A stretch of DNA of 63,276 nt, counting the filler, from Thraustochytrium aureum (taxonomy: Eukaryota), in the NCBI GenBank assembly GCA_012862495.1. It is 6 parts of 2 records of this genome, joined end to end, with 100 filler letters (N's around TTAATTAATTAA, not from the genome) between each part and the next. Parts side by side here need not be neighbours in the genome. Positions count along the whole stretch, not along the records: positions 40,882 to 59,106 come from BLSG01000061.1; 5 more parts are not named here. One strand, written 5' to 3'. Shown piece after piece: positions 45,453 through 49,675 of this stretch. Under the pieces are notes generated by a model. That model ran no database searches. It had not been told where the DNA came from and saw nothing but the letters and a program-made list of their open reading frames with translations. Made by a program: the position numbers and the translations under genes. The first letter of the stretch is position 1; every line of letters begins with the position of its first letter.

Positions 45453-48400
45453 GTCCTCGTCGTCAACCGGTTCTTTCCCGCCGCAGAGGCTGCTGCTCAG
45501 CGGGAGGCGCTCGCGCAGCTACTCTTTGAGAGTTTCGACGTCCCTGCTTGCATATTTGTGGACGCTGCTTTGCTGGCTCTTACATCGAGCGGGCGCGGCA
45601 CTGGTATCGTGGTACTTTCTGGTGGGAGCTTCACGGAAGTCGTGGCTGTTATCAAAAGGTTGTCTTGCAGGAGACCCGTATTGTTATTCCTTGGGGCGGC
45701 AAGGACGTGACGCAGGCGCTGGTCGACAGTCTCCGCGCCCAGGGCACGTACGCCGCCGCACAGGCGATCTCGCAGTTCGAAGTCGTGCGAGAGATCAAGG
45801 AGAAGTTGGGTTTCGTGGCGATCAACTTCGAGGCCGAGCTCCGAAGCGATTTGACTCCCTTGAACAAGCGCTACGAGCTTCCTGACGGCACCGTGGTGAC
45901 CTTGGGCAGTGAACGGTTTCGTTGTATCGAGCCCTTGTTCCAGAAGCAGAGTCAGGGAGGCCACGGCCTTGCCGAGGCAGTCGCGTCGTGCATTGCCAAG
46001 TGCGACGTAGACGCGCGCGAAGAACTCTACTCCAACATCTTACTTGCCGGCGGCAATACAATGTTCGACGGGTTTGCGGAGCGCCTCGAGAGAGACTTAA
46101 CCGCTTTCGCTTCTGGGCAAAAGATCAAGATTATCGCGCCACCTGAACGGAAATACTCAGTCTGGATTGGTGGATCGCTCTGGGCGAGCTTCAAGACCAA
46201 TCAAAAGCTGTGGATTTCGAAGGAGCACTACGACGAGCACGGCGCTTCCTGGTTCCGCTCAGACAAAGGCGAAGAAAACGACCTTGACTTTGCACTGCAG
46301 GCCGCTCGCATCCCCACTCCCATGTACAGTGACTACAACGAGGATGAAGATGCTCGGCGTATTGTTATCAAACTCGGCTCGGAGATGGTTAGCGCAGGCT
46401 TTTGTGACGATGACGCAACCCGTGCTGTCTTCTCCACACTCGTCGGTACACCCGCATATCCTCTTTATGAGACGCCCGAGGCTGAGTTGGAGGTGCTGCA
46501 ACGAACCAATTACGCACGGAGCAGTGGCGACTACCCGACGATCAGCTCGTCCGACCGGCAAGCGTTCAAAGCGGCGTATGTAGCCGCCCTCGGAGGCGGT
46601 TCTGCGCCGTTCGGTCGTAGCCGCATCATGCTGACGGGCGAGGGCCGCGCCGGCAAGTCTGCCCTGACTCGGTCGCTTTTGCACAAGCCGTTCATGGACC
46701 TTGCGTCAACGATTGGCGCCGACACGACCGAGACCGTGACCTTGAAGAGGGAGGCGAACGTGACGAACTGGATCGACTCGCCATCGCGCAACGAGTTTTC
46801 CCACCACGCCGCGCGGTGCGCAGCGTCCCAGCTTGCCCAGGTGCAGCAAAAGGCCACTAGGCGGCCATCTTCATCAGCGGCCAAGGCAGCGGTTTCCTCG
46901 ACGCTCAAACGCGTTTCCCTTCGGATCGGAGCGCAGAAACGGGCGAGTAACGTCGATGGCGAGCCACAGAAGAATGCAGCCAAGACCCAGGCGGCGATGC
47001 GGCCCAGCGCTACGACGGCGCAGCACTCGCGCAAACCGTCTGCTGCGCGGGTTTTGGCGAGAAAGCTTCGCTCAGACTCGTCTTCGGCGCCCACCGAGCC
47101 TCGCCAGCCCACTTCGACGGCCGAGCTGCTGTCGGCCAACTTTGCTGCGCCAGAGCTTGCTGTCGAGAAGGACGTGATGAGCCGCTTTGATGGTGCGCTC
47201 GTGTCCTCTTACGTTGATTCTAGCAAGGACAGTGCCGGCAGCGGCAGCAGGATCACGTTTGGGCTGTGGGACCTTGGCGGGCAGCGCGTCTTTTACGCGC
47301 TGCACCACGCGTTCCTGTCTCGATACTCGGTCTACCTTGTCGTCTTTGACATGCGCAAGATCCTGTCGACTGCCGAGCGCAAGTCGGCCCTTGGTTTTCT
47401 GGAGCACTGGCTCAACTCGATCGAGCTCCACGCGCCGGGCGCGCCGATGTTTCTTGTGGGAACGCACAAGGACGCAGTGTATGCGGAGCGAGACCTCTTG
47501 ACGGTGGACACGGCCCTCCGCAAGGCGCTCTCTCTGAGTAAGCGCAAGCAGAGCCTTCGGGCGAACGGGGCCAAGTGCTTTTGGCCGGTGGACAACTCGC
47601 TGAGCGGGCAGGCTGACAAGGAACGCGCCGATCCGGTCGTGCAGCGCCTTCGCGAGGCGATCGAGCGTGCCGCGGCGGCCGAAGAGTACGTCAAGAGGGA
47701 CATCCCGGTTGCTTGGACGCGCCTCGTCGACCTGTTGCTTGGATGCAAGAAGCAGCACGTCACGCTGGACTTTGTGGCAGAGCTGGCTGCGAGCCACTGC
47801 GGCATGCGCGACAACGTGCAAGTGGACGCTGCCCTGGCCATGTTTCATGAGCTGGGTTTGCTGCTCCACTTTCGCGAGGCGGACGAGCTTCGCCGCGTCG
47901 TGGTCCTCGACCCGCAGTGGCTCATCCAGTCGCTCTCCATGGTTGTGCGCGACTTTGACCTTCATCCGTACACGGAGGCGGTGAGCGACAGGGTTCGTGC
48001 ACGCTATTTTGACGACTTTGAAGAGCTCAAGGAATCCGGGGTCGCATCGCGGGGGCTCTTGGAGTGTCTCTGGGAGGACCAGGAGGAAAACGAGCTGGAG
48101 TATACGCGGCGCGAGTTTTTGCTGGCGCTCATGGTCAACCTAACGCTTGTGTGCAAGTGGCGCGTGGAGGCGGAGCGCGGCGAGAGCAGCCAAGGCCCCG
48201 CTTTCGTCGGCGGCGGCAACGTGGTTGTGGCCGGGGGGGTGCCGCCAGCGACGAGCCACGTCCTCGTTCCGTCTCTCTTGCGGCTCAGGTCGTCCGAGCT
48301 GGACTGGGTGCGGGGAGCGCATAGAGATGATCGAGACGGAAGTAGCGGAAGGCCANNNNNNNNNNNNNNNNNNNNNNNNNNNNNNNNNNNNNNNNNNNNN

Positions 48401-49675
48401 NNNNNNNNNNNNNNNNNNNNNNNNNNNNNNNNNNNNNNNNNNNNNNNNNNNNNNNNNNNNNNNNNNNNNNNNNNNNNNNNNNNNNNNNNNNNNNNNNNNN
48501 NNNNNNNNNNNNNNNNNNNNNNNNNNNNNNNNNNNNNNNNNNNNNNGGGAGCGCATAGAGATGATCGAGACGGAAGTGGCGGAAGGCCAGGGGGCGACGT
48601 TCTTTCTGGACCTGAGCAAGTCGTTCCTCCCGGTGGGCCTCTTTGAGCGACTGACGTGCTTGGCAGCGCAGCACGCTCGGTCGGCGGCGTTTGAGGGCTC
48701 TCGGGAACCTCTGCTAGCCCCAGGGGAGGCCTTGCTGTCCTTTGGGAGCTTGACTTTCGGCTCACAGAGATGCCCGAGGAGCAGCGCGTCCGTTGCATCA
48801 CCTGCGAGCACGAGCATGGTCGTCCAGTGGCGCTGGAGCTGGCCTCTATGCTCGCAAAGCTCAACGACGAGGTTTTCGGCGGGCGGCTCCAAGCGCAGAC
48901 TGTCGTAGTTGTGGAGGGCGGTCCGCACAGGTACAACCAAGTGGTGTTGGAGGACATTGAAAAGTGCTGGAAGAAGGGCAAGCCCATCGTTCGGGACATC
49001 AAGGGCAACCGCGTCAAGCGCGAGCTCGTCGCGCCATGGGTCGCACTGGCCTCAACCTCGGGCGCGACCAGGAAGGCCAACGACCAGGACGGGTGGGCGG
49101 TCAGAAACGCGCAACATCAAGCCCCTGCGATGGCGTTGAGTACGGACGAGCCTGGGGCGCTGACCGACGCTTGGCGGGCCCGCCTCGGGGATAGCATCGG
49201 TCCGCTCCGACTCCCCGCAGGTGCGCAGCATCACTTGTTCATCTCGCACTACCAGAAGAATGCGTCTGACACCTGCGGGCTCATCGCGAATGAGATGCGC
49301 AACCTCGGCTTCAAAGTATGGCGCGACATGGACAGCGACAAAGAGTTGACGGCCTCCACCATGCTGGAGGGCGTGCAGGGCACCGTGGTGCTTTTGCTGT
49401 TTCTCAGCAAGGGCGCGCTGTCGCGGGATTTTGTACAGATGGAAGTGCGCGCGGCAATCCAGCGCGGCACGCCCATCATGCTGGTGCATGAAGAGGACCG
49501 CCGCTTCCCGGCCTTCGCAGAGGTTTACGAGGTGAAGGAGGAAGCACCCGACGACCTCCGTGTGCTCTTTGACGTGATCGAGTCGGTGCCCATCCGGCGC
49601 CGCAGGCACGAGGCGCGCGCCTTTTACGCCGAGATTGCGCGTCGGGTTTTGGCAAGCTGCGGTGACGAGGAGTGA
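45453..49675 (+). CDS. Actin-like domain + Roc GTPase + COR + TIR fusion protein; 5' in gap, frameshifts near 45660, 48300 and 48770
   Basis: Actin: LFESFDVPA, VREIKEKL, YELPDG..GSERFRCIEPLF, LYSNILLAGGNTMFDG, IIAPPERKYSVWIGGS. Roc: GEGRAGKS, STIG, WDLGGQ, VGTHKD, VDN. COR: FHELGLLLHF, VVLDPQWL. TIR: LFISH, VWRDMD, LLFLSKG..FVQMEVRAA. Confidence 0.9.

Follow-up and report, generated by a model that had tools for sequence, protein, structure and literature searches.

An actin joined to Roc, COR and TIR domains in Thraustochytrium aureum, with degraded nucleotide-site residues and an unusual residue order

Introduction

Does a gene of Thraustochytrium aureum join an actin to a Roc GTPase, a COR domain and a TIR domain in one protein, and if so, what might such a protein do? 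The question is raised by positions 45453–49675 of a 63,276-nucleotide stretch of assembly GCA_012862495.1 (here the window), whose parts are joined by N44-spacer-N44 linkers and in which the feature falls within positions 40882–59106. The original prediction, made from the sequence of the window, saw there a new innate-immune receptor of a protist; to our knowledge, few receptors have been named in protist innate immunity. We find that the fusion is real: actin, Roc and COR-A share a frame, and the TIR probably belongs to the same chain. Its actin part has lost residues of the nucleotide site and carries residues 2–40 behind its C-terminus, an order that recurs in one other protein, P0152. 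The combination Roc-COR-TIR is already known; the actin in its sensor slot is the new part, which is real and recurrent, and for which we offer a predicted function.

The window belongs to a draft assembly, gappy and indel-rich, of a GC-rich, intron-poor microbial eukaryote. Three sequencing runs were compared with it. Run X1, one low-depth sample seen as contigs, carries an allele different from that of the window, with 46 substitutions over 42500–51000 (40 of them listed), and its pieces could stem from a paralog instead; runs X2 and X3 have hardly any coverage at the locus. None of the three runs checked holds RNA data, which has no bearing on expression itself. P0152 comes from an HMMER search of 1.84 billion representatives (best 150 of 16,650), and it, P0151, P0145, P0146 and P0259 are known here from protein sequences alone.

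Domain order and reading frames

The domains of the gene, their order, the intact G motifs of Roc, the TIR Glu and the losses in actin can be read directly from the sequence. Actin residue numbers here and below are those of conventional actin.

44638–45452, no strand: assembly gap of 815 N, which conceals the actin start (residues before 103)
45453–45653, plus strand: pseudo-actin residues ~103–167 (Pfam Actin, E 7.5e-12; residue map), with a frame break directly after
45656–46255, plus strand: pseudo-actin residues ~168–368 (phmmer against solved actins, E about 1e-61; 48% identity to conventional actin)
46343–46459, plus strand: actin residues 2–40, after the actin C-terminus, with linkers of ~30 residues on either side; same piece and ends in P0152
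46550–47640, plus strand: Roc GTPase (Pfam Roc; G1, G3 and G4 motifs intact; long low-complexity insert)
47705–48154, plus strand: COR-A (Pfam, 49.1 bits against a cut-off of 35.3)
48312–48546, no strand: false gap, a duplicated contig end plus N (43-base overlap; X1 joint 48311 to 48547)
48549–49033, plus strand: C-terminal half of COR (tblastn of P0127–P0129 and homolog alignment), with the third frame break near 48745
49226–49675, plus strand: TIR domain (Pfam TIR_2; Glu codon GAA at 49442–49444; stop at 49673–49675)

Read through from 45453, the gene has about 1,330 codons. The frame 45530–48355 alone holds Pfam matches to Actin (E 3.6e-54), Roc (2.3e-16; 60.6 bits against a cut-off of 27) and COR-A (7.2e-13), the last following Roc in the same frame, and the frame 48695–49672 holds TIR_2 (E 9.6e-7; 29.8 bits against a cut-off of 28), so that all four domains proposed at the outset were recovered. 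The Roc also matches LRRK2/LRRK1 and prokaryotic Roco proteins; being Ras-like, with G1, G3 and G4, and directly followed by COR, it places the protein among the Rocos. Against AbTir and SARM1 a six-row TIR profile scores E 1e-8 to 9e-7 and lines up the Glu, which bears out the proposal of a TIR fold with Glu at the NADase catalytic position; this Glu is present in 23 of 25 relatives. The positions first given for GEGRAGKS (46637), THKD (47462) and the Glu codon (49442–49444) are correct, and WDLGGQ, put at ~47270, begins at 47267.

Actin residues 103–375, Roc and COR had been placed together in one frame. This stands for residues ~168–368, Roc and COR-A, which share a single gap-free frame; it does not hold for residues ~103–167, which lie in the frame of 45453 (Pfam, tblastn) ahead of a break near 45654, and the actin match stops at 368, short of the claimed 375. 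That break, the position of residues 2–40 behind the C-terminus and the lost nucleotide residues were all absent from the original prediction.

In all there are three frame breaks in 4.2 kb: one within actin near 45654, one where the false gap lies and one near 48745. At the first, X1 has one extra base, which restores the frame. The gap at 48356–48546 had rightly been called false: the sequences on either side share an overlap of 43 bases, all but 1 of them matching, X1 links 48311 to 48547 in frame, and P0152 and P0151 carry on across it. Since X1 does not cover 46343–46522 (actin to Roc) or 48712–48774 (the third break), continuity there rests on the window contig and homologs. The homologs P0127–P0129, each a single chain, align by tblastn over the second and third breaks into TIR, shifting from frame 3 to frame 2 near 48745. 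Beyond the third break come 326 codons without a stop, with a GC3 of about 0.8 and TIR intact. Other genes of the window are split likewise, among them a kinesin at 34620–36380 (three frames, with one break inside the P-loop) and AAA_5 and TPH domains. Because X1 mends two of the three breaks, homologs align across them and the neighbouring kinesin P-loop is broken in the same way, the breaks look like assembly errors. With the false gap mended by X1, the third break outside X1 and the homologs single-chain, we infer from homologs and the second allele that one chain probably runs through all three breaks, TIR included.

The actin domain

The actin body comprises residues 103–368, with about 48% identity to conventional actin, and is followed in order by a 29-residue linker, actin residues 2–40, a 30-residue linker, a helix and Roc. 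The fold is recognisably that of actin in sequence (48% identity over 289 positions), and the domain is no conventional actin: D11K, K18S, Q137A, D154L, D157G and H161E replace what we take to be nucleotide and hydrolysis residues, and the 2–40 piece further carries N12L and G15E. Of a set of 22 nucleotide-site residues, 10 are kept in the window. The losses at Q137, D157 and H161 are common to all four actin-Roco actins that cover those positions, and Asn at 303 occurs in five of five actin-Roco domains as against 2 of 230 other motif matches.

Among surface residue sets, which were picked after looking at the data, the best kept in all five actins is the 24–28 loop with 329–345 (9/11, 11/11, 7/7, 7/7 and 14/15). 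This surface spans both the moved piece and the body, and so fits a permutation and a partner on the myosin side.

The order of body and then 2–40 was seen in 2 of 177 actin-bearing proteins, namely the window protein and P0152. The 2–40 piece matches actin at 19 of 39 positions in the window and 21 of 37 in P0152 (bodies, 63/111 and 48/109), and the flanking linkers share only 4 of 29 and 6 of 30 positions; since 2–40 is as actin-like as the body and the linkers have drifted, the piece appears to be under constraint. In actin, residues 2–40 supply three strands of subdomain 1, and the ends of the protein are close together. A circular permutation is therefore the simplest reading, and the same order and ends in P0152 point to it as well; residues 2–40 probably fold back into subdomain 1 of an actin opened at the D-loop. 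The protein may alternatively hold a full actin plus an extra 2–40 piece, as both N-termini are hidden, that of the window protein by the 815-N gap and that of P0152 by its start within actin. No other actin N-terminal part was found elsewhere in the window, and two predicted folds of the actin part were of low confidence (pLDDT 36 and 43). A natural permuted actin, if true, would mean that the fold tolerates opening at the D-loop.

The two alleles differ more in the actin part (13 of 619 bases) than in Roc-TIR (12 of 2209), a fourfold higher rate (Fisher p 9e-4). At 46150–46200, over the actin C-terminal motif, differences between window and X1 are dense and include a paired indel, by gene conversion or from a paralog.

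Relatives and phylogeny

The P0152 match spans the entire junction (actin 255–372, actin 2–40 and the Roc P-loop) with 37% identity over 365 residues, and P0152 was found on 6 contigs from four sources. The misjoin of actin and Roc that had been named as one danger to the fusion is thereby largely refuted. A search for longer proteins gave 6 matches among 7,982 candidates, including P0145 and P0146, which run from actin 44–375 through a dynein-stalk-like segment to Roc, COR and a weak TIR (E 0.02 and 0.009); in P0259 a full actin precedes Roc. The search for the same architecture elsewhere has thus yielded P0152 with the shared junction and three further proteins that join actin to Roc. Both P0145 and P0146 begin at actin residue 44, a start that may be a gene-calling artefact. 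Among 173 proteins scanned, 85 have Roc-COR alone, at least 25 Roc-COR-TIR, 52 actin alone and 4 actin with Roc, and 7 gave no match. Among named Roc-COR-TIR relatives, a protein of the thraustochytrid Hondaea fermentalgiana scores best (31–38% identity).

In Roco trees the window protein groups with P0151, P0152 and P0153 (96/100), and P0145, P0146 and P0259, whose Roc-COR is only 24% identical to that of the window, stand on a separate branch. A tree constrained to keep the actin-bearing rows together was rejected both under LG+G4 (26 rows, p-AU 4e-7) and under a mixture model (16 rows, p-AU 8e-60). In the actin tree, for which 20 of 32 rows were kept, the five Roco actins do group (80/95, not starred), on branches that are long and with a bootstrap that had not settled; a quick tree left them unresolved, and the module has thus not been shown to stem from one origin. 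Given that Roc-COR is split and the actins are grouped, either one module passed from one Roco lineage to another or two separate fusions degenerated in parallel, in which case the actin grouping would be due to long-branch attraction.

Roc was in none of the best 120 of 230 matches of a first homolog search, which were mostly actins. A metagenome scan with the junction gave three loci, of which L001 was rejected as a chance match in a bacterial-looking open reading frame (ORF). Nothing was found in viral scans for P0151 and P0152 or in two scans of prokaryote genomes, and an Atlas search gave no usable match for the junction, its P0145 leads all being under 0.9. The viral scans did contain one Roco-like match (L004, 5001–5726) and two giant-virus actin loci, one of which (L005, 5863–6999) is 58% identical to the P0145 actin.

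Comparison with known proteins

As proposed, actin occupies the front, or sensor, slot, which in other Rocos holds LRR, ankyrin, WD40, TIR or FHA domains. The architecture had been called undescribed. An actin-Roco or a permuted actin was indeed not found in the literature searched, which left out most subscription papers and some figures and supplements, but Roc-COR-TIR is both common (the at least 25 of 173 proteins above) and published, and the novelty is accordingly narrower than claimed. A TPR-ROCO-TIR of Chondrus crispus is in print (PMC11378527), and the legend of Figure 3 of a recent preprint (bioRxiv 10.64898/2026.04.20.719644) has Roc and COR among TIR architectures. Two surveys might yet include an actin-Roco: Figure 2 of PMC11378527, covering 1231 Roc domains, in its contents, and the preprint, surveying 16,011 TIR proteins, in its figures or supplements; one supplement of PMC11378527 gave no match for it.

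The Chondrus crispus protein, Hondaea fermentalgiana GBG34516.1 and the brown-algal LRR-ROCOs resemble the window protein in their Roc-COR core, C-terminal TIR and variable front domain. They differ in that its front domain is a dead actin instead of repeats, and no LRR exon shuffling was seen in the window. The prokaryotic AP-GTPase (Roc)-COR counter-invader proteins (Kaur et al., PMC8195603) likewise have a sensor slot, Roc-COR and a variable C-terminal domain, whereas the window protein is eukaryotic and its sensor slot holds an actin fold where theirs has LRRs. Plant NLRs with integrated decoys also carry a domain resembling a host protein in a chain of switch plus TIR; in the window protein, by contrast, the switch is Roc-COR and not NB-ARC, there is no LRR, and effector binding is a candidate property only. 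No Pfam match to an NB-ARC or NACHT switch with LRRs was obtained in the window protein. SARM1 and AbTir are alike in the profile match with aligned Glu, and unlike in that clustering here would come from Roc-COR and not from SAM domains.

Actin reportedly serves as a domain of a larger chain in POTE ankyrin-actin and in Dictyostelium filactin. Compared with such fusions (POTE, filactin, actin-VWA), the nucleotide site of the window actin is degraded and, in the branch of the window protein and P0152, residues 2–40 follow the C-terminus. P0207, P0268, P0290, P0291 and P0099 form a separate metagenome family, in which actin is fused to a VWA or Sec23-like domain. The window protein joins three well-studied modules in a chain that was not found in the literature searched, and each link of that chain can be assayed: what the TIR produces, clustering driven by Roc and what the dead actin binds.

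Proposed function and alternatives

By analogy, we lean slightly towards one chain of over 1,330 residues in which the dead actin is the input, Roc-COR the switch and TIR the NAD+-cleaving output of an alarm against invaders. With residues 2–40 folded back, Roc would hang from the pointed-end face of a non-polymerising actin module. A foreign actin-binding protein, or host filaments or myosin, would bind this module and shift the monomer-dimer cycle of Roc-COR, for which GTP turnover and nucleotide-dependent dimerisation are predicted from other Rocos (cycle described in PMC6337361). The shift would cluster the TIRs, and these are predicted to cleave NAD+, giving a cADPR-type signal or draining NAD+; according to the preprint cited above, protist TIRs produce cADPR in a Glu-dependent manner, and a TIR clade with thraustochytrids surrounds a 3'cADPR producer. 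The immune part of this reading draws on the swappable front slot, on the case for brown-algal ROCOs as immune receptors (PMC3341825, PMC11378527), on bacterial Roc-COR counter-invader proteins (PMC8195603, PMC7159879) and on the fourfold allele difference. A fuller version, with a permuted dead actin as sensor of a Roc-COR-TIR receptor, a module moved between Roco lineages and a recurring actin bait, is one to which we give only tentative, minority weight; if true, it would mean that microbial eukaryotes repeatedly use actin as an integrated bait in immunity. Partners of the actin module would reveal what these cells keep watch on, be it viral or bacterial proteins or host motors.

A number of points weigh against the alarm. 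R177 and T148, which we take to be targets of actin-modifying toxins, are lost in all four actin domains covering them, so the pseudo-actin is not bait for enzymes modifying those residues. The barbed-end cleft is poorly kept in the window (5 of 18 positions), though well kept in the other branch (13–14 of 18); the two losses and the cleft of the window actin make a poor fit to bait for WH2-type or ADP-ribosylating effectors. Replacement and silent codon differences between the alleles number 10:10 in the actin part and 5:4 in Roc-TIR; with half of the actin differences silent, there is no sign of positive selection. P0151, P0152 and P0153 are all fragments, and the TIR of P0145 and P0146 is below the Pfam cut-off and is not aligned at Glu. 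In P0152 the Roc insert runs straight to the end of COR-A, without G3–G5 and most of COR-A, a shortfall that may reflect genuine loss, faulty assembly or an intron-like artefact. No read mends the third break, and P0151 leaves the frame at about the same codon. Finally, no pathogen, phenotype or transcript is tied to the gene, nor were expression data found.

The same protein could instead do housekeeping work, the dead actin docking a Roco on filaments, myosin or an Arp-like complex, without any link to invaders, and the TIR yielding a cADPR-type messenger that serves motility, calcium or the cell cycle. The best-kept surface of the actin, the dynein-stalk-like segment of P0145 and P0146 and the purifying pattern in the actin part would all suit this role, but patchy occurrence and a swappable front slot are more like receptor families than core cytoskeleton, and the actin module is found in two distinct branches of the Rocos; we regard this role as a credible reading, if a rather unlikely one. 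That the gene is a decaying copy of a once-functional actin-Roco, with a real frameshift removing TIR, is improbable. Three breaks in so short a span, the last outside X1 coverage, and nearest relatives that are also fragments are what decay would leave, yet X1 mends two of the breaks, the kinesin, AAA_5 and TPH genes of the window are broken likewise, and the long open frame downstream keeps its GC3 and an intact TIR.

We give still less credence to a genuine, conserved break near 48745, that is, a programmed −1 shift with the TIR-bearing form as a minor product. P0151 does leave the frame there, its tail fits the window −1 frame at 12 of 18 codons, a fit that 2 of 5000 shuffles reach over this span, itself picked after looking, and at 16 of 34 (13 of 5000); the site is followed by a hairpin of about −28 kcal/mol, computed with no shuffle control. 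On the other hand, no canonical slippery heptamer is in register, P0127–P0129 and P0142–P0144 are open at the site, and at a conserved Gly-Glu codon pair there is a run of G that may have been undercalled in both assemblies, a simpler account. Least probable is that an actin gene and a Roco gene were falsely joined: the assembly is prone to errors and X1 does not bridge 46343–46522, but P0152 has the same junction and order at its level of identity, and the frame is open across the junction within one contig.

Neighbouring genes and other features

Upstream of the 815-N gap lies one further ORF that may bear on the gene.

43400–44637, plus strand: EsV-1-7 Cys-rich repeat ORF (Pfam PF19114, E 4.2e-55), open into the gap

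It has ten WC units spaced 36–38 residues apart, and an X1 contig suggests that the repeat carries on beyond 44637. The ORF could encode a protein of its own or the N-terminal part of the actin-Roco protein; its link to actin is a candidate only. EsV-1-7 genes have been called rare in stramenopiles other than brown algae (PMC12993054).

Neighbouring genes (PNKP, PAC2 and an amidohydrolase) are ordinary eukaryotic ones. Elsewhere in the window, 51514–53795 on the plus strand encodes a secreted-looking Cys-rich protein over two frames (no Pfam match at E 1e-4), and 14801–16141, plus strand, an Endonuclease I domain (PF04231, E 1e-29). At 22025–23656, plus strand, a NEL E3-ligase domain (PF14496, E 2e-25), presumably of a family of bacterial effectors, lies in a eukaryotic scaffold.

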